Below are positions 2,435-40,083 of a stretch of 64,000 nucleotides of DNA, one piece after another. Position 1 is the first letter of the stretch. The number at the start of each line of letters is the position of its first letter. The position numbers and the translations under genes were made by a program. Source of the stretch: a virus (Duplodnaviria; Heunggongvirae; Uroviricota; Caudoviricetes); the IMG/VR virus record IMGVR_UViG_3300045988_142422. One strand, 5' to 3'. Below the pieces are notes generated by a model. That model was not told the origin of the DNA, did no database searches, and saw only the letters and a list, made by a program, of their open reading frames with translations.

Positions 2435-2713
2435 TTATTTTAATCTGCTTAATAGCGTTTCGAGATCTTCCTTTGTCATATTAGAGTTCTCATAGATACG
2501 CATGATTTTCTCACGAGTCTTAGCGGAAGCCCCGACAGAAGATATAACCTTGTCAAAGTCGGCCATTGTCAATTGTTCCAGAATGGTATTTATGACTTCA
2601 GCCTTAGACATTTTGATATTTTTTTCTTTTAGTTTCACTTGAAACTTTCCAAGTTTGTCATTGGCCTTATCAGACAATGCTACCTGACAGTAAGTTGTTT
2701 TCTTTTCACTCAT
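2435..2713 (-). CDS. Hypothetical small protein (92 aa)
   Basis: ORF immediately downstream of, and nearly abutting, the helicase gene on the same strand. Confidence 0.45.
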   Translation of the reverse strand: MSEKKTTYCQVALSDKANDKLGKFQVKLKEKNIKMSKAEVINTILEQLTMADFDKVISSVGASAKTREKIMRIYENSNMTKEDLETLLSRLK

Positions 2714-2715
2714 AA

Positions 2716-4275
2716 CTAATCTCGTTTCAGAACTCCAAAATCGAATGCTCCATCAATAGGCAATACACCTTCTGCAAAGCCAGGTGTGGTGTCGATGATG
2801 TGTTTTCGCTCATAAGAGTGAGACAACAGGTATTTGTTGCTAATGTCAATGAAATCAGTGATAAAACACACGTTTGCCTGATTTTTTTTGGCTCGTAAGC
2901 CACGACCGACACGCTGCCTCATTTCAACTTCTGCTTTTCCACCACCAGCCAGAATGACCGCACCAACGCTTGGCACATCAACACCGACATCCAGAATAGT
3001 CGAGCCTATTAAAACATCTATTTCGCCAGACGCTAAACTGTTCAGCTTTGCTTGCCTTGTCGCCTGGTTCGATTCCCCATAGATGAAGTCAACTCTAAGG
3101 CCGGACTCCTTCATCATCTCCATCAGGATTTGCCCGTGGCGTTTAAGACGAACCAGAGTCATGCAATTGAGAGAATGTTGCTTATAGAGCAATGCTTCGC
3201 GCACAATGGCCTCGTTACGTCCCAAATTATACACGATCCCCAACTGATAAGCCTTTTGGTAGGCTGTGCTCATACCTACTCTAAAATTAAGGTGTTTGTT
3301 GGCAAGTTCCGCCTTGATTCTGACCTCGTCTGGCTTGTAAGCAACTTTATGATAAAGGAAGTACGGTTTTGCCAGAATGCCTCGATCAATCAGGTACTTT
3401 TCTGTGACTTTAATTTCAATTCGACCGGCCACAGCCATCAGACGCATGTTGGCTTCTGTAGAATCCTTCATGAACGGCGTGGCCGTAAGCGCCAGACGAT
3501 AGTCTGCGTTCACACATAATCTGGCAATGTCATAGAAATTAGAGCCTGAAGACTCATGCGCTTCTTCCAGAATAAGCAGAGACACACTTGAAAGGAAGCG
3601 TTTCACCAACTCCCGACGTTTGAGGTGGTAGCTTTTCTTATCTGGTGTTGCATCGCGTGGTGGTTCTTCGAGGAAACTTGCAAGAGTTTGAACTGTAGCG
3701 ACGTTGATATGTCGTGATACCTGGAACTCACCCGAGCCAATGACTCCAACCTTTTGGTCTTTTAACCACGGTTCGCCATTTTCGGCGCGGTAGTCGATGG
3801 ATCTCTGGAAGTTTTCGGCCATTTGAAACATCAGAACAGAGCGGGTTGTTAAAAATAATGTCATTCGACCGATACGTGCAGCTGCTTTGCAGGCAACGTT
3901 AGATTTCCCGCCACCAGTAGCGATCTGCGCAATCATCATTCCCTCTCGAACCAGTGTTTCCACAGTCTGATCCTGATACGCATAATCAGGATTGTATGGG
4001 AATGGGTTAACCGCCGGATTTGGTTTACCAAGCGCCGGGGCTTTGTCTTTGCGGATATGAACACATTTGATGCCCGCCTTGTTCAAGTTCGCCGCTACAG
4101 GCTTGGCAAAGCCAGCAGGGAACGAGTTTTTACTCCAGTTGAACATCGTGCTTGTGCCCTTCCAGTCGCCAGTCTCGACTTCGTAGCTCAACATTTGCTG
4201 CACCAGTTGCTTTACCTTGTCATCTGCGCCAGAAATAAGCGCATTTACTGCGTTAGATACAATCCGAACAGTCAT
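2716..4275 (-). CDS. Superfamily-2 DNA/RNA helicase (DEAD/DEAH-like)
   Basis: Walker A-like IATGGGKS, DEAH-like LILEEAHESS motif II, C-terminal helicase-domain motifs (GRGLRA). Confidence 0.7.
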   Translation of the reverse strand: MTVRIVSNAVNALISGADDKVKQLVQQMLSYEVETGDWKGTSTMFNWSKNSFPAGFAKPVAANLNKAGIKCVHIRKDKAPALGKPNPAVNPFPYNPDYAYQDQTVETLVREGMMIAQIATGGGKSNVACKAAARIGRMTLFLTTRSVLMFQMAENFQRSIDYRAENGEPWLKDQKVGVIGSGEFQVSRHINVATVQTLASFLEEPPRDATPDKKSYHLKRRELVKRFLSSVSLLILEEAHESSGSNFYDIARLCVNADYRLALTATPFMKDSTEANMRLMAVAGRIEIKVTEKYLIDRGILAKPYFLYHKVAYKPDEVRIKAELANKHLNFRVGMSTAYQKAYQLGIVYNLGRNEAIVREALLYKQHSLNCMTLVRLKRHGQILMEMMKESGLRVDFIYGESNQATRQAKLNSLASGEIDVLIGSTILDVGVDVPSVGAVILAGGGKAEVEMRQRVGRGLRAKKNQANVCFITDFIDISNKYLLSHSYERKHIIDTTPGFAEGVLPIDGAFDFGVLKRD

Positions 4276-4357
4276 AAACCTCTTTCCTTAGTGCCTTTTG
4301 TATGTTATTTGGCTATTATAATAAGTAAGTGATTACTTAGTGGATTGTAGCAATAAA

Positions 4358-5038
4358 ATGGATGTAAAAATCACGATTTTGCAGGTTGATGTTGCCAACC
4401 TTCGCCCGAATACCTGGAACACCAATTCGGTTGGTGCGCAGAATTTTGAAAAACTGAAAGGTTCTATCGAAAAATTGGGCTTTTTTAAGCCAATTTTGGC
4501 TCGTGAACTTGAAGATGGATTTTTTGAAATCCTCGGCGGTGAACATCGCTGGCGTGCTGCTATTGAGCAAGGAATTTCAACGGTTCCGGTGCTTTCTGTG
4601 GGCAAAATTAGCGATGTCGTAGCTAAACAGATGTCACTGGTGGACAACGAGCGATACGGTGAAGACGACCAAATCGCATTGCAACGCTTCATTGAAGAAA
4701 TTCAGTCAGAACTTGACTATCAACTGTCTGAAATCGCCCCGTATGACGACGAAATCTCGATGGTTTTAGCAAAAGAGGCGGCAATCGACCTTGAAGCACT
4801 GGAGGCGTTGTCTCGTGGTAGTGATGAGCCTGTCGATACCGACAAACGAGAGAAAACCGAACGTGTGGGTGCGGAACATCAGACCATGCGCTTCAAAGTA
4901 ACTTTCGATGCGTCAGATCGTGTTGCAGAAACCATAAAAAACATCATCAAAGAGCAGGCTATTAACACCGGTAATGAAATGGAGAACGCTGGTGAGGCTC
5001 TGGTGTGGCTGGTCGACTACTACAAGGAGCGTATGTAA
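4358..5038 (+). CDS. ParB/Srx-like N-terminal domain protein 1
   Basis: GGEHRWRAA matches the ParB GxRRxxA box; acidic middle region. Start set at ATG 4358 (the track start 4340 is GTG). Confidence 0.65.
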   Translation: MDVKITILQVDVANLRPNTWNTNSVGAQNFEKLKGSIEKLGFFKPILARELEDGFFEILGGEHRWRAAIEQGISTVPVLSVGKISDVVAKQMSLVDNERYGEDDQIALQRFIEEIQSELDYQLSEIAPYDDEISMVLAKEAAIDLEALEALSRGSDEPVDTDKREKTERVGAEHQTMRFKVTFDASDRVAETIKNIIKEQAINTGNEMENAGEALVWLVDYYKERM

Positions 5039-5706
5039 TGACCAAAAAGTTTGAAATCGTATATCGCGACCCGGCAGATCTTATTCCCTATGAGATGAAT
5101 GCCAAAAAGCATGATGAACAGCAGATCAGAGATTTGGCCGCAGCCATTAAAAAGCGCGGATTTGACCAGCCAATTACGGTCGATAAGAACGACGTAATTA
5201 TTACTGGCCACGGCCGCCGTGAGGCTGCAATTTTTGCTGGACTTGAGCGCGTACCGGTTATTGTTCGTGATGATCTGAGTGATGACGAGGTTCGTGCGAA
5301 GCGCCTTGAAGATAACCGACTTGCCAGCATTGATTACGATGCAATTAAGCTACAGAAAGAGCTTGAGTCGCTTGTTCTGGACGATATTGAGGTTTTCGGC
5401 TTTGAAGAGCGTGAGTTGAATGTTCTCGTTGGCAGTATGACAGAAGAAATGGACACCGACTCGCTAGTTATCGATCTTGGCGAAGAAACTAAACGACAGA
5501 AGGATGAACACACCGAGATCAGTCGTGAAGTTGCAGCGGAAGAAGTACGTGTTGTCGACGTATTGGGCTTTAAAACGCTCCCTGCTGGCTCTGCCATTGT
5601 TGTTGGTGATTTGCTTGCCCATATGGAAGAAATGACGGGAGAAAGCGGGGTAGACGCATTTGTGGCATATGCGGAGAAGATCTCTTCCGGGGAGATGGCT
5701 GCATGA
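5038..5706 (+). CDS. ParB/Srx-like N-terminal domain protein 2
   Basis: ITGHGRREAA ParB box; ATG overlaps the upstream stop (TAATG) with AAGGAG 9 nt upstream. ORF track lists an extended 5005 start. Confidence 0.65.
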   Translation: MTKKFEIVYRDPADLIPYEMNAKKHDEQQIRDLAAAIKKRGFDQPITVDKNDVIITGHGRREAAIFAGLERVPVIVRDDLSDDEVRAKRLEDNRLASIDYDAIKLQKELESLVLDDIEVFGFEERELNVLVGSMTEEMDTDSLVIDLGEETKRQKDEHTEISREVAAEEVRVVDVLGFKTLPAGSAIVVGDLLAHMEEMTGESGVDAFVAYAEKISSGEMAA

Positions 5707-6368
5707 GCAAATACATCATCAACGTATCGTTTCAGACACGCGTAAATAAAACCACGCGCACGTTGGAAATCGCTGAGTCGTTCGGGCTTGGCCTGGACGA
5801 AAAAGAGTGGACGCTTTACGACAATCTGGAGCTGGAAGTGAAGCAGGGCGATGTGGTGTACATCACCGGCCAATCCGGTTCCGGCAAATCCGTTGTGCTG
5901 CGCGAGTTGCAACGACAGATGAAGGATGAAGGGCTGTCTGTAGCCTCCATCGATGATTTTACCTTCGATAATGAGGTTAACGTCATCGATCAGTTGGGCA
6001 AAACGACCAGTGATGCGCTTGGGTTGTTATCTATGGCTGGTCTGAACGATGCATATCTGTTTGTTCGCAAGCCTTCTGAAATGTCAGACGGCCAGAAATA
6101 TCGTCTCAAGATTGCCAAACTGATTGAGTCAGGCGCTAAAGTATGGGCTGCTGACGAGTTCGGCGCTGTTCTCGACCGTGTAACCGCTCAGGTTGTGGCG
6201 TCTAACCTCCAGCGTGCCGCTCGAAAGGTTGGTGCGACGGTAATGGTGGCGACGACTCACGAAGACCTGAAGAACGCGCTGCGCCCTGATATGCAGATCA
6301 CCAAGCACTACAAAGAACGCGTGAAGGTGGAATATCACAATGGTAGTCATGATGAGGTCCATTCATGA
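5703..6368 (+). CDS. Minimal ABC-type ATPase (221 aa)
   Basis: Walker A GQSGSGKS, ABC signature-like SDGQKYRL, Walker B VWAADEF, H-loop TTHEDL. ATGA overlap with the upstream gene. Confidence 0.7.
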   Translation: MSKYIINVSFQTRVNKTTRTLEIAESFGLGLDEKEWTLYDNLELEVKQGDVVYITGQSGSGKSVVLRELQRQMKDEGLSVASIDDFTFDNEVNVIDQLGKTTSDALGLLSMAGLNDAYLFVRKPSEMSDGQKYRLKIAKLIESGAKVWAADEFGAVLDRVTAQVVASNLQRAARKVGATVMVATTHEDLKNALRPDMQITKHYKERVKVEYHNGSHDEVHS

Positions 6369-7255
6369 CGGACATCATCATTAAACGCTACCGCCCTGAA
6401 GAGTTTCCGCGTCATCTGGACTTTCTGGAGCGAATGACTGTTACAAAGGGAACTGTAGAGGACTGGCACGCTCTTAAGTCGCTTCACTACAAAACAGACG
6501 GCAAACCTTTCGCGCCAACTTACTATCGCTGCGAACTTGATGACCGTCTGGTGGGCGTCGTGGTTATGGCTTACCCGAAACTACTGTTGGCACCTCGCCA
6601 CCGCATGTTTCCTAAGTTGAAACCAACCACTAATACCACCGTGGCTAACCAGTACTGGGGTCGGTACGTGAATAACAACTTTGCGGTGATCAGTCGCTCA
6701 GTTGTGGATACTCAGTATCGTGGCGTAGGCGTCTCTTATAGAATGATTAACCTGGTTAGCAGGATGCATGACCGGCCAATCATTGAGATCCAGTCCTCGA
6801 TGAGCAAATACAATCCCTTCGCCATGAAAGCAGGGTTTAAGTTCATCCGCCCTGAGCGACCGAAGAGCTATGAAAGTGCACTGCGTGTGTTCCAGCGCCA
6901 TTTCCGCTCCGACCCGGGTGATAACGAGGCGATCGTCAAAGAATTGTTCGCTATGAGCGAGTCTCGTCGTCGCCGTGCGCTGCGCGATTTGGTGGCGGAC
7001 TACCATAAGAACAGTTCCCTGGCAAAAGCTGGGCGGAATCGTGGCACGACGATTCAGGACATTGCCGACAGTCTGGTGGACGAGGCCAGCATTGTGAAGC
7101 TGCTCAAGGACATTCACAACCTGAGCTTTACGTCTCCGTTGTATGGTGTGTACCGAAACCCTGACTTTGGCCGTCGACTGCCTGACACGCTGCCACTGCT
7201 GGCATTCGACAAACAACCTTTGGATAAACCGTTAGAAATTGCTTTACCGGCATAA
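6365..7255 (+). CDS. GNAT-fold acyltransferase-like protein (296 aa)
   Basis: DTQYRGVGVS resembles the GNAT RxxGxG/A acyl-CoA-binding motif, followed by NPFAMKAGFKFI. ATGA overlap with the ATPase. Fold assignment is tentative. Confidence 0.45.
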   Translation: MTDIIIKRYRPEEFPRHLDFLERMTVTKGTVEDWHALKSLHYKTDGKPFAPTYYRCELDDRLVGVVVMAYPKLLLAPRHRMFPKLKPTTNTTVANQYWGRYVNNNFAVISRSVVDTQYRGVGVSYRMINLVSRMHDRPIIEIQSSMSKYNPFAMKAGFKFIRPERPKSYESALRVFQRHFRSDPGDNEAIVKELFAMSESRRRRALRDLVADYHKNSSLAKAGRNRGTTIQDIADSLVDEASIVKLLKDIHNLSFTSPLYGVYRNPDFGRRLPDTLPLLAFDKQPLDKPLEIALPA

Positions 7256-7264
7256 GGATTTGCC

Positions 7265-7531
7265 ATGACGTTAACCGACAAACAAAAGGACATCATCAAA
7301 ACGCTCAATCTCGGTTATGAGCGAGGTCATCTACTTGACCTGGACGAATTGCTTGAAGTTTTGCCGTACAAGACAACCAAGCAAAGTATCCAGTTCTCAA
7401 TTCGCGCTCTGATAAAAAAGGGGCTGGTGGAGAAAGGGCATACGCGCCAACGCAGTGACAATCGCTATCACCGCCGGACTCTTGGGTTAACCACTTTAGG
7501 TCGAGCCAAAGCGAAGTTACTGGTGATGTAA
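7265..7531 (+). CDS. Small putative winged-helix DNA-binding protein (88 aa)
   Basis: Basic 88-aa ORF directly after the GNAT-like gene; the sequence pattern suggests a wHTH. Weak. Confidence 0.4.
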   Translation: MTLTDKQKDIIKTLNLGYERGHLLDLDELLEVLPYKTTKQSIQFSIRALIKKGLVEKGHTRQRSDNRYHRRTLGLTTLGRAKAKLLVM

Positions 7532-7554
7532 TCGGTCTGGGAGCTTATTTAAAG

Positions 7555-7611
7555 ACCTGCATCTGTATATATAAATAATAAGTAACTTATTAAATATATA
7601 CGGAAGCAGGC
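7555..7611. repeat. 57-nt inverted-repeat element, copy A
   Basis: ACCTGCATCTGTATATA ... TATATACGGAAGCAGG arms around an AATAAGTAACTTATT core; a near-identical copy lies at 39921-39978. Confidence 0.7.
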
Positions 7612-7726
7612 TTCGTAAGACATGCCAGACCTAATTAAACACCCCAGAAAACAAGTTGGTTAGCAGATGCAGTAAACAAGTTGTTTTAGAGCGCATGGAC
7701 GCGCTCTGTGTGTTTTAGAGGGATCT

Positions 7727-8359
7727 ATGACGGTCGAAAAAGACGAGGTAAAAACTCGCCTGACACCAGCGGAGTGGGCCGAAGCTGAAGCCAAATGGAC
7801 GTCAGGCGAATATACACTCTCAAAGCTGGAGGAAGAGTACGGCATTCGTCGTGAAACACTCTCCAGACATTTCAAAAAGCGAGGATTAGAGAAAGGCGCG
7901 GACTCTGTTGGGAAGATGGTTCGTGAGTCTCTTAAATCTGACGCAGAGCTTCGCGCTAAAGCCCGTGCGGAAAAGATAGAAGAACGTCGTACACGTTATG
8001 ACGGCTGGGCGTATGCGTTGGGGCAGATGGTGATGGTCGAAGTCACTACGGCCAAACGTGAGGGTAAGCCTTTAGGGGCGATTGAGGATTCTCTCAAGAG
8101 CTTACAGAGAGCCAGTAATACCCTTGCAAAATGCTTTGAAGTTTCGTCCAAAGCATTGGGCATGGATCATGCGGAAAATGACGAGGAAGAAATTCCGAAC
8201 CTGGTATTTGGTGAGCTTACGCCTTCCCAGGTGGCGAAATTACGTCAGGAAGACGACGAGCCTGAAATCATCGATGACGAATTGCTTGAGACGTTGGAAG
8301 AAGAAGCTCTAAGCGAATTTGATGCGACAGATGATGGAAGTGAAGGGGAGGACGAATAA
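7727..8359 (+). CDS. Terminase small subunit (putative)
   Basis: Sits directly upstream of and abuts the large terminase; N-terminal HTH-like region and a strongly acidic C-terminus. Confidence 0.55.
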   Translation: MTVEKDEVKTRLTPAEWAEAEAKWTSGEYTLSKLEEEYGIRRETLSRHFKKRGLEKGADSVGKMVRESLKSDAELRAKARAEKIEERRTRYDGWAYALGQMVMVEVTTAKREGKPLGAIEDSLKSLQRASNTLAKCFEVSSKALGMDHAENDEEEIPNLVFGELTPSQVAKLRQEDDEPEIIDDELLETLEEEALSEFDATDDGSEGEDE

Positions 8360-9615
8360 TGGCAATCCCGTCCTCGCTCAGTCTTGTGCAACTGCATTCT
8401 GGACAGATGAAAGTCTTCCAGTCTCCGCATCGATTTAAAGTTGTTTGTGCTGGTCGACGCTGGGGAAAATCCCGGTTGTCGATCTCCACTATTATTCGTG
8501 CGGCGGCAAAGGAAAAAAAGCAAAGAGTCTGGTATGTCGCTCCTACTTACCAGATGGCTCGCCAGATTTTGTGGGACGATCTACAGGAAGTTCTGCCTCG
8601 TAAGTGGGTTAGGAAAAAGAACGACACCACGATGACAATCGTGTTGAAGAACGGTTCGGAGATCGCCCTCAAAGGTGCTGATAAGCCTGACACTCTGCGC
8701 GGCGTAGCGTTGCATTTTGTAGTGCTTGATGAATTTCAGGATATGAAGGCTGACACCTGGTACAAGGTGTTACGACCTACTCTTTCATCGACACGCGGCG
8801 GTGCACTGATCATTGGTACGCCAAAAGGCTTCTCGGAATTTCACAAACTGTGGACTATAGGCCAGAACGTAGAGCTGCAAAGAAAGGGACAGTGGAAGAG
8901 CTGGCAGTTTGTAACTGCCGATTCTCCGTTTGTACCTACGGCGGAAATTGAAGCTGCTAAGAACGATATGGACCCGAAATCGTTCGCTCAGGAGTACCTG
9001 GCGAGCTTTGAGAACATGTCCGGGCGCGTTTACTACCCGTTCGATCGTAACGTGCATGTAAAACCGCTTCAGTTCAACCCTCGGTTGCCTATATGGGTAG
9101 GGCAGGACTTCAACATTGACCCGATGTCTTCAGTAATTTTGCAACCTCAGCCAAATGGTGAGCTATGGGCAATTGATGAATTGGTGCTCTTTTCCTCTAA
9201 CACGGCAGAGGTTTGTGATGAGCTTGAGAGACGCTTCTGGCGCTGGAAATCACAGATAACGGTATTTCCAGATCCGGCAGGTGCTTATCGCCAACATGCT
9301 CGCGGGGAGTCTGACGTCGACATATTCAAAGAGAAGGGATTCTTACGTGTCGATTATTCGAAAAAGCACCCGCCAATTGCGGATCGTGTTAATGCTGTTA
9401 ACCGAATGCTGATGACCGCATCTGGAGATATCCGGCTGTATATCGATCCGAAGTGCAAGCATTTGATTGATTCACTGGAAAAAGTCATCTACAAGCCTGG
9501 AACACGAGATATGGATAAGACAGGTGGCATTGAGCATAGTGCAGACGCATTGGGCTATCCAGTACATCGTAGGTATCCAGTCAAAAACCGTGTTATTCTT
9601 GGTGGTTCTCGATAG
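8359..9615 (+). CDS. Terminase large subunit
   Basis: Walker A-like VVCAGRRWGKS, Walker B VVLDEF, C-terminal nuclease-like region; followed by the portal gene. Confidence 0.8.
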   Translation: MAIPSSLSLVQLHSGQMKVFQSPHRFKVVCAGRRWGKSRLSISTIIRAAAKEKKQRVWYVAPTYQMARQILWDDLQEVLPRKWVRKKNDTTMTIVLKNGSEIALKGADKPDTLRGVALHFVVLDEFQDMKADTWYKVLRPTLSSTRGGALIIGTPKGFSEFHKLWTIGQNVELQRKGQWKSWQFVTADSPFVPTAEIEAAKNDMDPKSFAQEYLASFENMSGRVYYPFDRNVHVKPLQFNPRLPIWVGQDFNIDPMSSVILQPQPNGELWAIDELVLFSSNTAEVCDELERRFWRWKSQITVFPDPAGAYRQHARGESDVDIFKEKGFLRVDYSKKHPPIADRVNAVNRMLMTASGDIRLYIDPKCKHLIDSLEKVIYKPGTRDMDKTGGIEHSADALGYPVHRRYPVKNRVILGGSR

Positions 9616-9641
9616 GTAAGTAATTATCTAAGGTTATTCAA

Positions 9642-11216
9642 ATGGAATTGAACGACAAACAAATTAAGGATCTGGTGGCGCGACGCCACCCGGAATACGA
9701 AAAGAAAAAAGAACATTGGGACTTCCTCGCCAGCACTTACGCTGGCGGGCGTGGTTGGTTTACAGACAATATCTTTCGTTACTTTAAAGAGGGAGATCAG
9801 GAGTTTAAGGAGCGAGTTGAACGTGCTTATCGCTTCAACCACACTCGTGAGGTGGTAAACCTCATCAACAAATATCTCTTTAAAGAAGACATTCATAGAA
9901 ATATCGAAGAGGCACCAGAGCAGATCCGCAATTTCTGGAAACGTGCGACTCGCCAGAATGCCTCTATTGACTCATTTATGGCCGCTATTGATTTGCAGTC
10001 GTCTATTTACGGTCGCATATGGGTTGTTGTCGATAGCACGATGAGTGGTGATGTTGAGTCAGTAGCTGACGAGAAAAAGAAAGATGCTCGCGCCTACGCC
10101 TACTGGATTTCACCTCAGCAAATGCTGGATGTGGCATGGGACGACGACGGGAATATGTTGTGGGCGTTAATTGTGGAAGTCGCTCGTGATGACGCAGATC
10201 CTTTTACTTCTACAGGTCAGGAATACCAACGTTATCGTCTGTGGACACAAAACGAGTGGTATCTGTTCCGTGAGGAAGTGAAGAAGGGCGCTGGTGGAGC
10301 AGGTCGCCGTCAGGCAAAAGTTATTTTAGAGGATAGCGGTGAGCATAATCTCGGCGTAGTTCCTGTGTTTCCTGTTGATTGTATTGGAGAAAGTGAATCA
10401 CCGTATTTCAGCCCATCGTTGATCGATGATATCGCTTATCTTGATCGTGCGGTTGCAAACTATCTGTCAAACCTTGATGCCATTATTCAGGATCAGACAT
10501 TTAGCCAGTTGGCTATACCGGTACAGTCGCTTTTACCTGGTGATGAAAACCACACTAAAGTGCTTGAAATGGGCACAAAGCGAGTATTCACCTACGATTC
10601 TGAAGGTGGAAACCAGCCGTTTTATCTGTCACCAGACCCGAAACAAGCTCAGATGATCATCACTACGATTAAGACGGTGATTAACGAAATCTACCATTCA
10701 GTTGGTGTAGCTGGTGAGCGAACGAAGCAGGACAACGCACAGGGAATCGATAATTCATCTGGTGCCGCAAAAATGTATGACTTCCAGCGTGTAAATAGCT
10801 TGCTTGTCACAAAAGCAGAGCGTCTGGAAAGGGCTGAACGCCAAATCATGCTACTGGTTGCGAAATGGATGGGGGTAGATCTGGACGAAGACCACTCTTT
10901 AATTGCGTATCCAGAAAGTTTCGATATTCGTGGCCTTACTGATGAATTTTCTGTTGCCGAGAAACTGTCATTACTTCAGGCACCGGACTCTGTACGTCGT
11001 CACCAGATGGAAATGCTTATTGAGAAGATTTTCCCGAACATTACTGAGGCGATGAAAAAGGAATTTGATAAAGATCTCTTGAATTTTCCTCCAAAAAATG
11101 ATCTAAATACCCTTGAAAATAAGTCAGTACTTACTTATGATCGTGGTGCAGCCCAAGAAAGCGGGCAAGATCAACCCCGAGGGAATGGGGACTCATCTAC
11201 TCAAGAGAACGAGTGA
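9642..11216 (+). CDS. Portal protein
   Basis: 524-aa protein between terminase and scaffold/capsid genes; size and position typical of a portal. Confidence 0.75.
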   Translation: MELNDKQIKDLVARRHPEYEKKKEHWDFLASTYAGGRGWFTDNIFRYFKEGDQEFKERVERAYRFNHTREVVNLINKYLFKEDIHRNIEEAPEQIRNFWKRATRQNASIDSFMAAIDLQSSIYGRIWVVVDSTMSGDVESVADEKKKDARAYAYWISPQQMLDVAWDDDGNMLWALIVEVARDDADPFTSTGQEYQRYRLWTQNEWYLFREEVKKGAGGAGRRQAKVILEDSGEHNLGVVPVFPVDCIGESESPYFSPSLIDDIAYLDRAVANYLSNLDAIIQDQTFSQLAIPVQSLLPGDENHTKVLEMGTKRVFTYDSEGGNQPFYLSPDPKQAQMIITTIKTVINEIYHSVGVAGERTKQDNAQGIDNSSGAAKMYDFQRVNSLLVTKAERLERAERQIMLLVAKWMGVDLDEDHSLIAYPESFDIRGLTDEFSVAEKLSLLQAPDSVRRHQMEMLIEKIFPNITEAMKKEFDKDLLNFPPKNDLNTLENKSVLTYDRGAAQESGQDQPRGNGDSSTQENE

Positions 11217-39720: not shown

Positions 39721-39920
39721 TCTTAATTCCCTTTCTACGTGATTGGTACATTGTTTATTTCTGGACGTTTCTTAAGTTGTAGACGCTATTCTGTGTCTGA
39801 GTAATCTACAATAATTTGTTACACTTAACAATGTTGCAACCGTCTGGCGTGCAGCTGTTTTGAAGTAGATCTTAAGGTTGCATACCATGAGACTAAAAAC
39901 TAGGTTGGGTTGGTTTTTGA

Positions 39921-39978
39921 CCTGCTTCCGTATATAAATACTAAGTTACTTATTATTATTTATACGGAAGCAGGTCTT
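39921..39978. repeat. 58-nt inverted-repeat element, copy B
   Basis: CCTGCTTCCGTATA ... TATACGGAAGCAGG perfect 14-bp arms around a CTAAGTTACTTATTA core; homologous to 7555-7611. Confidence 0.7.
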
Positions 39979-40083
39979 TTATCTGCTGACTTCCCAGATA
40001 CATTCCCTTCCGTTTCCACTTCCAAAAACTGCCACCAGTCGCTATCATCCGCTCATCGTGATAAGTAAGTAACTACCTACCAG

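Follow-up and report, generated by a model that had tools for sequence, protein, structure and literature searches.

A widely conserved five-gene operon beside the terminase genes of SSU5-type phages combines two ParB-fold proteins with a predicted split ABC ATPase-GNAT enzyme

What would a phage do with a block of overlapping genes that lies next to its terminase genes and codes for two ParB-like proteins, an ABC ATPase and a GNAT-fold protein? The question is raised by positions 4358-7531 of an SSU5-like phage-plasmid of Escherichia coli with 98-99% identity to the phages CMS-2020a, PhiR41_1 and Cyrano (the whole stretch of 64,000 nucleotides that was analysed is called here the window). A sequence-only reading had described there an operon of four translationally coupled genes and considered a role in DNA modification, anti-restriction or packaging initiation plausible. 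The observation itself is confirmed here, and its interpretation is partly supported.

The operon and its borders

The interval holds not four but five tightly coupled genes, in the order ParB1, ParB2, ABC ATPase, GNAT-fold protein and a small winged-helix (wHTH) protein (Table 1). The overlapping stop and start codons reported at 5038, 5703 and 6365 can all be read in the sequence, and the ParB, ATPase and GNAT-like (RGVGVS) motifs quoted along with them are present as described. An alternative in-frame start of ParB1 (GTG at 4340) is found upstream of the ATG. The fifth gene begins 9 nt past the GNAT stop codon in the window and overlaps this stop in loci L003 and L004 and in the Pseudomonas phage nickie. 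In L003 and L004 the small gene behind the GNAT gene is a homologue by phmmer (5e-8 and 3e-17), and those of nickie and of a Rhizobium phage were matched by position only. The wHTH protein weakly matches Lrs14/Sta1 regulators of archaea and the DNA-binding domain of LexA. The computed isoelectric points set two basic proteins (GNAT 9.8, wHTH 10.2) beside two acidic ones (ParB1 4.55, ParB2 4.53). PHROG families already hold all five genes. In PADLOC none of the five proteins had a significant full-length match to a component of an anti-phage or anti-defence system, the matches being generic: P-loop/ABC (mad3 2e-13, mad8 1e-8), ParB domain (MTase_II) and the wHTH protein against the C-terminal region of a CARF family (4.5e-5).

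Table 1. Features of the operon and its flanks in the window.
Feature	Position	Strand	Remarks
Superfamily-2 (UvsW-like) helicase	2716-4275	-	Divergent; Pfam ResIII, DEAD, Helicase_C
Short palindrome TAAGTAAgtgaTTACTTA, core ATAATAAGTAA	4318-4339		About 20 bp upstream of the ParB1 ATG; candidate operator/promoter element
ParB1, 226 aa	4358-5038	+	ATG 4358; TAA 5036-5038
ParB2, 222 aa	5038-5706	+	ATG 5038-5040 overlaps the ParB1 stop (TAATG); TGA 5704-5706
ABC ATPase, 221 aa	5703-6368	+	ATG 5703-5705 (ATGA overlap with ParB2); TGA 6366-6368
GNAT-fold acyltransferase-like protein, 296 aa	6365-7255	+	ATG 6365-6367 (ATGA overlap with the ATPase)
Winged-helix (wHTH) protein, 88 aa	7265-7531	+	Fifth gene; phrog_900 at 2e-45
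Imperfect AT-centred palindrome, ~58 bp	7553-7612		Between operon and terminase genes; candidate protein-binding or cos/pac-related site
Terminator-like hairpin and T-run	7687-7708	+	Just 5' of the TerS-like gene
TerS-like DNA-binding protein	7727-8359	+	phrog_867; ATG at 7727
Large terminase (TerL)	8359-9615	+	Terminase_6N, Terminase_6C; conserved downstream partner, with the TerS-like gene

A helicase gene is likewise divergent and next to the operon in L003, L004, nickie, the Rhizobium phage and JGB6, and we class it as a conserved neighbour, not as a demonstrated member. The palindrome core ATAATAAGTAA occurs in the window four times exactly and six times with at most one mismatch (0.82 expected), and 16 of 18 nt are common to the short palindrome and to the centre of the long one. 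The linear SSU5 record starts and ends at the centre of the long palindrome, a second full copy of which lies ~32 kb away (~39920-39985). The Rhizobium phage, L004 and nickie have other palindromes in the same position, and the hairpin is kept in SSU5, a Klebsiella phage and PhiR41_1. The operon had been placed directly upstream of the terminase; the TerS-like and TerL genes are indeed the next ones, but a spacer of 195 bp containing the palindrome and the hairpin lies between, and the two operons are not fused.

The ATPase and GNAT genes

The ATPase matches ABC_tran well above the Pfam cut-off (50.1 bits vs. 25), with Walker A (GQSGSGKS), signature (SDGQ), Walker B (VWAADE) and H-loop (TTHE) motifs, and its nearest relatives in sequence are nucleotide-binding domains of the transporter and ABC-F types rather than DNA-clamping ABC proteins. 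The following gene product has the GNAT alpha/beta fold with a helical insert of ~90 aa, and stays below the Pfam gathering threshold (Acetyltransf_10, 14.4 bits vs. 23.6, E 0.037), with no match in NCBIfam. Its RGVGVS loop (R119-G-V-G122-V-S124) resembles the expected R/Q-x-x-G-x-G/A but ends in Ser, not Gly/Ala, and the R and the G (R119/G122) are invariant in 43 sequences and in fused relatives. The database name of its family (phrog_886) is 'ATP-binding subunit', yet this is a GNAT fold without a P-loop.

A profile search with the GNAT protein retrieved 897 relatives. Among the matches listed, about 60 are longer than 330 aa and have an ABC domain at the N terminus and a GNAT domain at the C terminus, the same order as the genes in the window. 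The window ATPase matches the N-terminal halves of these fusions (phmmer, E 1e-12 to 2e-63, in most cases under 1e-30) and the window GNAT protein their C-terminal halves (E 1e-11 to 1e-24). Pfam recognised ABC_tran in all ten relatives that were scanned and gave sub-threshold GNAT matches in four. Walker A, LSDGQ, the D-E of Walker B and the D-loop are invariant in the fused family, as are the GNAT residues equivalent to H41/Y42, R119/G122, E141 and Y260 of the window protein, and the H-loop histidine is conserved in at least 90%. In the window the two domains are in two genes (ATGA overlap, 6365-6368) and not in one polypeptide, and all phages of the SSU5/nickie type, as well as planctomycete loci, show the same split; small ORFs often sit between the split genes in the relatives. 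Both window genes are named in the sources 'ABC-type ATPase with/fused to predicted acetyltransferase domain' (MK0520-type), a family which we take to be COG2401.

As judged from sequence, then, the 221-aa and the 296-aa proteins are the halves of one ABC ATPase-GNAT enzyme, which many other viruses and archaeal genome contigs encode as a single chain, and both halves have kept their catalytic motifs. Binding of acyl-CoA and acyl transfer by the GNAT half are predicted. The 'minimal' stand-alone ABC ATPase of the first description is instead half of a two-domain enzyme. The architecture had also been called undescribed. At the level of single genes a family label and PHROG families exist, and our literature search found no paper on the ABC ATPase-GNAT family or on the five-gene system. 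What is new here is the recognition of both genes as a split, uncharacterised viral enzyme that stays beside the packaging motor.

ParB partners, synteny and terminase linkage

Both ParBs belong to the ParB/Srx superfamily (PF02195 domain at the N terminus, with the arginine motif of box II) and score above the gathering cut-off of ParB_N (50.0 bits for ParB1 and 35.2 for ParB2; cut-off 26.3). They carry the boxes GGEHRWRAA and GHGRREAA, respectively, and are paralogues, as had been proposed (33% identity over 116 aa, E 5e-10). ParB1 (phrog_723 at 1e-78) is an acidic protein in which the ParB/Srx fold is followed by a conserved C-terminal domain of ~55 aa, seen in the ortholog alignment, whose fold is unassigned. 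It matches Spo0J/ParB/Noc N-domains in the PDB (1e-9 to 1e-5), with low confidence past residue ~100. ParB2, with the same nucleotide-binding fold, is of the type seen at the N terminus of phage ParB-methyltransferases (NAKKH...GHGRR...DNR), and a structural search gave no match to a DNA-binding (HTH) domain in it. Judging from their motifs, both proteins may bind nucleotides.

The ParB/Srx-fold proteins are genuine partners of the enzyme, adjacent to it in proteobacterial and planctomycete phages (with a different gene order in the latter) and fused to it in some relatives. In three relatives of ~680 aa the N terminus is a ParB/Srx-like domain with a DGEQR motif and a Zn-ribbon comes next; the ParB/Srx-like domain aligns with the ParB2 family (hhalign, probability 96.9%, E 1.4e-10, 128 columns). 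No ParB was detectable in probable archaeal-virus loci, and therefore ParB is not essential for the core enzyme.

Distant phages and prophages whose proteins are 41-44% identical have the same gene order, so that the operon is not a product of chance. The full order is also present in virulent phages (Pseudomonas phage nickie and phages of Rhizobium, Stenotrophomonas and Xanthomonas), and integrated prophages keep the operon as well. The five-gene operon of SSU5-type phages is thus real and widely conserved, and the possibility that its synteny would break down among relatives does not hold. That the genes act together, as the sequence-only reading had it, is borne out by this synteny and by the natural ABC+GNAT and ParB+ABC+GNAT fusions. 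The module genes are not in the list of Cyrano genes expressed in lysogeny; together with the presence in virulent phages, a role in the lytic cycle is the best reading.

The linkage of the enzyme gene to that of the large terminase persists from enterobacterial phages to probable archaeal viruses, and in some cases there is also a link to the gene of DNA polymerase B. Of 97 distant loci, 45 have TerL within 300 bp of the ABC-GNAT gene, and stop/start codon overlaps of -3 or -7 are frequent; the count is drawn from related viruses that are not independent events. Pfam confirmed the TerL of locus L157. Single ORFs of 1260-1310 aa join a family-B DNA polymerase (PolB) to ABC-GNAT, and in locus L205 the neighbours are RNR and PolB. 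One relative has an intein within the ATPase and one a TFIIB repeat. Genes at the borders of modules can be neighbours without any functional link.

Possible function and comparison with known systems

The most likely reading of ABC-GNAT is an ATP-gated acyl-transfer machine that works on phage DNA or on proteins bound there. For the whole lytic-cycle operon we propose, at a probability of roughly 0.45, one multi-protein enzyme, a ParB-assisted and ATP-gated acyl-CoA transferase on phage DNA (or, next, on a DNA-bound protein). Binding of ATP would close the dimer of ABC heads, as in other soluble ABC proteins, and this closure would position or gate the two basic GNAT domains, which would move the acyl group from acyl-CoA to the substrate. 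The two acidic ParB paralogues could, as nucleotide switches, activate the enzyme on double-stranded DNA or load it there, like the ParBs of phage thymine dioxygenases, and the wHTH protein may bind specific sequences or have a regulatory part, perhaps at the palindromes on either side of the operon. The enzyme would act late in infection. Its likeliest substrate would be replicated phage DNA before or during packaging, as a protective base modification similar to that of Mom, and the second likeliest a DNA-bound protein. Against DNA as the substrate counts that the great majority of GNAT enzymes have proteins or small molecules as their targets, and our literature search found no report of modification of SSU5-type virion DNA. 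Only tentatively can the operon be seen as a new post-replicative DNA hypermodification machine, in which the split ABC-GNAT and two ParB switches would form an ATP- and acyl-CoA-dependent, packaging-coupled DNA base acyltransferase; if true, such an enzyme would be conserved all the way from phage-plasmids of enterobacteria (SSU5, pHCM2-type, and plasmid-prophages of Klebsiella and E. coli) to tailed viruses with Bathyarchaeia and Nitrososphaeria as their nearest genome matches. A role linked to DNA modification or packaging, as first suggested, is still the most plausible, and the terminase linkage and a ParB-dependent DNA-modifying enzyme described in 2026 (O'Toole et al. 2026, PMC13229309) add support to it.

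The linkage to TerL and PolB would suit equally well a possible but doubtful protein acetyltransferase, an ATP-gated enzyme that acetylates lysines or N-termini of host nucleoid or phage replication/packaging proteins and so strips or regulates them, letting the DNA be replicated and packaged. The TFIIB repeat and the presence of the enzyme in archaeal-type and bacterial viruses without common DNA-modification partner genes speak for it, but the ParB folds of the DNA-methyltransferase-fused type and the 5mYOX-ParB precedent point to DNA, and the target protein is hypothetical. The high pI of the GNAT half suits nucleic-acid binding, though also a DNA-associated action on proteins. An operon directly upstream of TerS/TerL, with a palindrome in conserved position between them and tight TerL adjacency in distant viruses, might instead help the terminase to recognise or cut a palindrome-marked cos/pac region, and the ParB/Srx fold does include nuclease/nicking and NTPase members. 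We find such a packaging-initiation or terminase-accessory module improbable: it leaves the conserved, putative acyl-CoA loop and GNAT catalytic residues unexplained, archaeal-type loci have ABC-GNAT beside TerL without ParB, the palindrome is not unique and the hairpin parts the two operons.

A host take-over directed to RNA or translation, with an ABC-F-like ATPase bringing the GNAT protein to ribosomes or tRNA by the logic of TmcA/NAT10 or TacT, is less credible still. Most of the ATPase can be aligned with ABC-F ribosomal-protection proteins (NCBIfam NF000355, 1e-11; Lsa(A), 6e-9), and TmcA is an NTPase-GNAT enzyme that acetylates a tRNA cytidine; but many transporter nucleotide-binding domains score equally or better, there is one ABC domain and not the tandem of ABC-F, and the links to ParB, TerL and PolB have no obvious tie to translation. 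Already contradicted, and hardly worth retaining, is a plasmid partition module or an ABC transporter 'moron', as the database names would have it ('ParB-like partition protein', 'ABC transporter', 'ABC transporter ATP-binding subunit') on an element that is a low-copy plasmid-prophage. Virulent phages and integrated prophages have the same operon and SSU5 has a separate ParA-like gene 30 kb away, none being in or adjoining the operon; therefore it is neither, and the absence of the module genes from the Cyrano lysogeny list goes in the same direction. The identity of a canonical (ParABS) partition ParB was rejected, with parB_part (TIGR00180) scores of 43.2 and 43.1 bits (cut-off 58.45), no adjacent parA, no ParA-binding LG(K/R)GL N-terminal motif in either translation and no HTH match in ParB2. 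So was that of an ABC transporter: no permease or substrate-binding gene is in or near the operon, no membrane-protein gene is in it or its conserved flanks, and the 'ATP-binding subunit' is the GNAT protein. The absence of transporter or SMC context noted earlier thus extends to partition, and neither a partition nor an established terminase-accessory module was recognised.

How does the ParB-assisted acyltransferase that we propose compare with known systems? The MK0520-type ABC ATPase-acetyltransferases match in their two halves, in order and in catalytic motifs, but are single chains, whereas the window enzyme comes from two translationally coupled genes. Pfam, NCBIfam and PADLOC scans of the five proteins gave no DndA/C/E, DpdA TGT, 5mYOX dioxygenase or methyltransferase domain, and since these defining catalytic enzymes are absent, the likeness to known ParB-linked DNA-modification systems is one of architecture only. 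Mom of phage Mu is a GNAT-fold late gene product that modifies its own DNA (at adenine) before packaging. The fold is common to both, but there is no detectable sequence similarity, the structural likeness is no greater than to dozens of protein, polyamine and aminoglycoside acetyltransferases, and Mom acts without ABC ATPase or ParB partners. In Dnd systems the ParB-family DndB, the ABC ATPase DndD and the modification enzymes share an operon (PMC10853773), a combination of components that the window repeats with a putative DNA-modifying catalytic component. However, DndA, DndC and DndE homologues are missing, PADLOC matches to Dnd proteins are negligible, the ATPase is similar to transporter-type domains and has no coiled-coil insert like that of DndD, and the chemistry would be acyl transfer instead of sulphur insertion.

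Phage ParB folds are often fused to DNA methyltransferases, such fusions being enriched in prophages, and a ParB-acetyltransferase fusion binds GTP (PMC12704722). ParB2, and more weakly ParB1, is homologous to the N-terminal ~150 aa of ParB-DNA-methyltransferase fusions (phrog_498; PADLOC MTase_II), but the window ParBs stand alone, have no methyltransferase domain and are paired with an acyltransferase-type enzyme. Along the same lines, the phage thymine dioxygenase 5mYOX needs a cognate ParB devoid of a DNA-binding domain to act on double-stranded DNA (O'Toole et al. 2026, PMC13229309), and 5mYOX clusters co-occur with ParBs (27%) and terminases (19%) (PMC13229309). The window has two ParB paralogues instead of one, and an ABC ATPase with a GNAT protein of predicted activity in place of an Fe(II)/2-oxoglutarate dioxygenase; like the 5mYOX ParB, which consists of a nucleotide-binding domain and a C-terminal domain, ParB2 has a nucleotide-binding fold and no recognisable DNA-binding domain, and is encoded beside a putative DNA-acting enzyme.

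Operon layout, ParB proteins and repeats

From the sequence alone, the genes 5' of the terminase had been read as four genes chained by overlapping codons and placed directly upstream of the terminase genes. The TAATG and ATGA junctions are indeed seen, but the run has five plus-strand genes; the TerS-like and TerL genes (7727-9615) do come next, but only after a 195-bp spacer with a palindrome of ~58 bp and a hairpin resembling a terminator. Every motif quoted in the sequence-only reading was found, the two ParBs are paralogous as proposed (33% identity over 116 aa, E 5e-10), and both ParBs and the ATPase exceed the Pfam gathering scores. Over the 3.5-kb interval, identity is 98-99% with the E. 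coli SSU5-like phage-plasmids CMS-2020a, PhiR41_1 and Cyrano, falling to 85% with Salmonella phage SSU5 and ~80% with Klebsiella SSU5-like elements.

Genes of the operon and copies of a repeated 11-mer in the window
Feature	Position	Strand	Remarks
ParB1	4358-5038	+	First gene (ORF map and sequence)
ParB2	5038-5706	+	TAATG overlap with ParB1
ABC ATPase	5703-6368	+	ATGA overlap with ParB2
GNAT-like	6365-7255	+	ATGA overlap with ABC ATPase
wHTH (88 aa)	7265-7531	+	9-nt gap after GNAT-like
ATAATAAGTAA, exact	4318, 7575, 39946(-), 61538	mixed	Window search
ATAATAAGTAA, one mismatch	11131(-), 54129	mixed	Window search

ParB1 resembles the N-domains of chromosomal ParB/Noc proteins, and its box II reads G-[EQH]-H-R in the orthologues. 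A ribbon-helix-helix DNA-binding domain had been guessed for its C-terminal part from a beta-alpha-alpha pattern, but no informative match came from PDB or Pfam in profile searches. There is an in-frame GTG at 4340, 18 nt 5' of the ATG at 4358, and the N-termini are longer in the SSU5 and Klebsiella records (232-234 aa); in the orthologue alignment conservation sets in only past the ATG. ParB2 falls into the group of ParBs that in phages are found joined to DNA methyltransferases (phrog_498 at 2e-31; PADLOC MTase_II at 3e-17), with the invariant pattern N21-A-K23-K-H25...Q29, G57-H-G-R60 and D92-N93, and an R94 following it that is conserved in at least 90%. In the structure model of ParB2 (pLDDT 81.5) the predicted N-terminal fold, and only this part, matched PadC, KorB and sulfiredoxin, and the modelled helical remainder matched no DNA-binding domain. 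Both ParBs are acidic (pI 4.5), while the GNAT-like (pI 9.8) and wHTH (pI 10.2) proteins are basic. The TerS-like 'DNA binding domain' protein (7727-8359) has a very acidic tail, with a net charge of about -15 over the last 30 residues.

The imperfect palindrome of the spacer (AAGACCTGC.TC.GTATA...ATAATAAGTAACTTA...TATACGGAAGCAGG) has two copies in the window, at 7553-7612 and ~39920-39985, about 32 kb apart and both intergenic. In the linear GenBank record of SSU5, both ends fall exactly on the midpoint of the first copy. A unique cos site at 7553-7612 was considered, an idea weakened by the second full copy and by core copies 5' of other operons; the palindrome could rather have a regulatory function or serve as a binding site. 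Unrelated palindromes occupy the same position between wHTH and TerS in a Rhizobium phage (L217, 7121-7205), in the distant locus L004 (9220-9283) and in Pseudomonas phage nickie (L216, 7215-7254). The 11-mer ATAATAAGTAA is found four times exactly and six times with at most one mismatch, against 0.82 expected. Its copies, mostly sitting in short palindromes, lie just 5' of ParB1, ~150 bp 5' of the TerS-like gene, ~100 bp 5' of the gene (61645-62673) for a gp32-like SSB, and at other places; a phage-specific operator or promoter is a possible role.

The ATPase and GNAT genes as a split enzyme

A search for homologues of the ATPase yielded nothing beyond close enterobacterial relatives. The profile search with the GNAT protein retrieved 897 relatives among 1.8 billion representatives, the close ones being stand-alone proteins of about 300 aa and most of the distant ones proteins of 450-500 aa. 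In the latter, the N-terminal half is similar to the ATPase of the window (mostly E 1e-30 to 1e-63) and the C-terminal half to its GNAT protein (E 1e-11 to 1e-24), i.e., ATPase followed by GNAT as in the gene order of the window. ABC_tran was detected in all ten relatives scanned with Pfam, and sub-threshold GNAT matches in four of the ten. An alignment of 34 fused proteins has invariant Walker A, LSDGQ, Walker B and D-loop motifs and an H-loop histidine conserved in at least 90%, and the invariant residues of the GNAT protein, namely the acyl-CoA loop (R119..G122), E141 and Y260, are kept without exception here as well. The two genes are thus a split two-domain enzyme with intact motifs and, since motifs and residues are kept in the fused alignment, both activities are probably real.

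The fused enzyme also has a variant with a C-terminal TFIIB repeat, and single ORFs of 1260-1310 aa place a family-B DNA polymerase (PolB, exonuclease and polymerase domains) 5' of ABC-GNAT. As gene-called, these ORFs occur in L175, L176, L137 and L154 (proteins P0205 and P0178) and may be either true fusions or read-through calls. One relative (P0165, 847 aa) carries an intein with a LAGLIDADG endonuclease in the ABC ATPase, directly after Walker B, and the ribonucleotide reductase beside ABC-GNAT in locus L205 (4880-7888) also has an intein. The ATGA junction between the two genes of the window is an insertion hot-spot in relatives, with one to three small unrelated ORFs between the halves (L002 8131-8682, L215 48512-48766, L216 5646-5981, L217 5043-5898, L003 6961-7999, L004 7705-7995), such as a 183-aa ORF in Klebsiella, DUF2829 in Rhizobium or, in L003, Phage_gp49_66 plus a RyR domain.

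Gene neighbourhoods in relatives

The sequence-only reading had proposed synteny as a check, and the complete gene order (divergent helicase, ParB1, ParB2, ABC, small inserts in some cases, GNAT, small gene, TerS-like, TerL and portal) does recur in distant contigs and cultured phages. The contigs are one of Ectothiorhodospira and a 3.3-Mb metagenome contig, each within a phage-like gene cluster, and the phages, of 105-120 kb, are Pseudomonas nickie (Nickievirus), several Rhizobium phages, Stenotrophomonas phages and Xanthomonas JGB6. In two distant loci, a dCMP/cytidine deaminase-family gene lies a few genes past the divergent helicase (L003 1108-1569(-), L004 2695-3183(-)), and L003 has a radical-SAM gene at the locus edge.

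Contigs of Bathyarchaeia and Nitrososphaeria carry the fused gene, as do many from IMG/VR. A TerL homologue was found in 52 of the 97 distant loci, within 300 bp of ABC-GNAT in 45 of these 52, counts that are not independent events because the loci are from related viruses. TerL is usually directly upstream, commonly with overlaps of -3 or -7; in L157 the upstream ORF is a Terminase_6N (Pfam) preceded by tail genes. In planctomycete loci TerL is downstream of the enzyme (adjacent in L099 and L103, with a ParB gene between the two in L102), and in the SSU5 lineage TerS and TerL come after the operon. The enzyme has therefore been kept beside TerL in each of three arrangements; its linkage to TerL is persistent, and that to PolB occurs sometimes. 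Elsewhere the neighbours are replication genes, as in L205 (RNR, ABC-GNAT, phosphoesterase, PolB). L135 is a provirus from the genome of an isolate; its fused gene lies between a ParA-type ATPase (6914-7837(-)) and a putative amidoligase (9522-10385(+); Amidoligase_2, E 9e-60), and TerL and portal follow ~3 kb downstream.

Contigs end within 100 bp of ABC-GNAT in 25 of the 97 loci, and most of those ending at the gene do so exactly at its stop codon (L138, L139, L141, L144, L155, L158, L160, L161, L173, L191, L198, L212 and others). A location of the gene at a physical genome end was considered and dropped; most likely the source pipeline trimmed these proviruses at gene boundaries, and ABC-GNAT would then often be the last gene scored as viral.

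In four Planctomycetota loci (L094, L096, L097, L102) ParB is 3' of the GNAT gene instead of 5', so that the linkage survives gene shuffling. Three relatives of ~680 aa begin with a ~150-aa region with NPN...DGEQR motifs, followed by a Zn-ribbon, and a profile-profile comparison matched this region to the ParB2 family (probability 96.9%, E 1.4e-10, 128 columns). ParB was not detectable in any of 80 archaeal-type viral loci. ParB is a physical or functional partner of the enzyme and looks like an accessory to this core.

Possible role and known systems

The reading that we favour, with a probability of about 0.45, is a machine acting on phage DNA or nucleoprotein. ATP-driven dimerisation of the ABC heads would gate acyl transfer by the basic GNAT domains to phage DNA or a DNA-bound protein around packaging time, the ParB paralogues being nucleotide-switch activators and the wHTH protein the site-specific element. 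True acylation of DNA bases, which is one part of this reading, has by itself a fairly low probability. Rival readings are that proteins are acetylated at the nucleoid or packaging apparatus, that the module assists packaging initiation, or that the target is RNA or the ribosome; even with a protein substrate, the annotation correction and the functional link of ParB, ABC and GNAT hold. Partition and transport are essentially excluded. Against partition, virulent phages and integrated prophages carry the operon, the ParA-like gene of SSU5 is separate, 30 kb away, and the module genes (CYRAN_119-123) are absent from the list of lysogeny-expressed genes of the 99% identical Cyrano (PMC9928086). 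As to transport, the ATPase had been described as lacking a transporter context, rightly so: no permease gene is present, and what was taken for a second 'subunit' is the GNAT protein. A known defence or anti-defence system was also rejected, the PADLOC matches being all generic: P-loop, ParB-domain and wHTH (CARF-family C-terminal). The 92-aa gene 3' of the helicase (2435-2713(-)) matches CYRAN_117 in position; the latter is listed with expression 12-fold above background in the LF82 lysogen, and the adjacent ParB-ABC-GNAT genes are not in that list.

Databases and PHROGs contain the genes, though mis-annotated. The names given in the SSU5-like records are 'ParB', 'ParB-like nuclease' or 'DNA modification methylase', 'ABC transporter', and 'MK0520 protein, ABC-type ATPase fused to a predicted acetyltransferase domain'; the enzyme family is so far known by its database label only. 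Should the proposed role be correct, a gene pair that many genomes now carry under the wrong name 'ABC transporter' would form a new enzyme class with viral DNA or chromatin as its target, and a terminase-adjacent marker in tailed viruses of bacteria and probably archaea. Contigs with one single ATPase cluster number at least 1000, and clinical Klebsiella, E. coli and Salmonella harbour SSU5-type plasmid-prophages. Direct tests of the role are feasible, since the operon is present in culturable phages (SSU5, Cyrano, nickie and the Rhizobium phages).

Our literature search found no description of the ABC-GNAT family, of this operon or of ParB with an ABC ATPase and GNAT, and the association with the terminase appears undescribed. 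The phage thymine dioxygenase 5mYOX needs a cognate phage ParB on dsDNA, with a nucleotide-binding and a C-terminal domain and without a DNA-binding domain; ParBs co-occur in 27% and terminases in 19% of 5mYOX clusters (O'Toole et al., 2026, PMC13229309). As nucleotides, ParB folds take CTP, ATP or GTP; in prophages they frequently form fusions with methyltransferases, and one ParB-acetyltransferase fusion, without an assigned function, binds GTP (Kaljevic et al., 2025, PMC12704722). In Dnd systems, a ParB-family protein and an ABC ATPase stand together with modification enzymes (PMC10853773). If true, our reading would mean that ParB folds, newly recognised as activators of enzymes that modify DNA, also serve acyl transfer, with an ABC ATPase added to the scheme.
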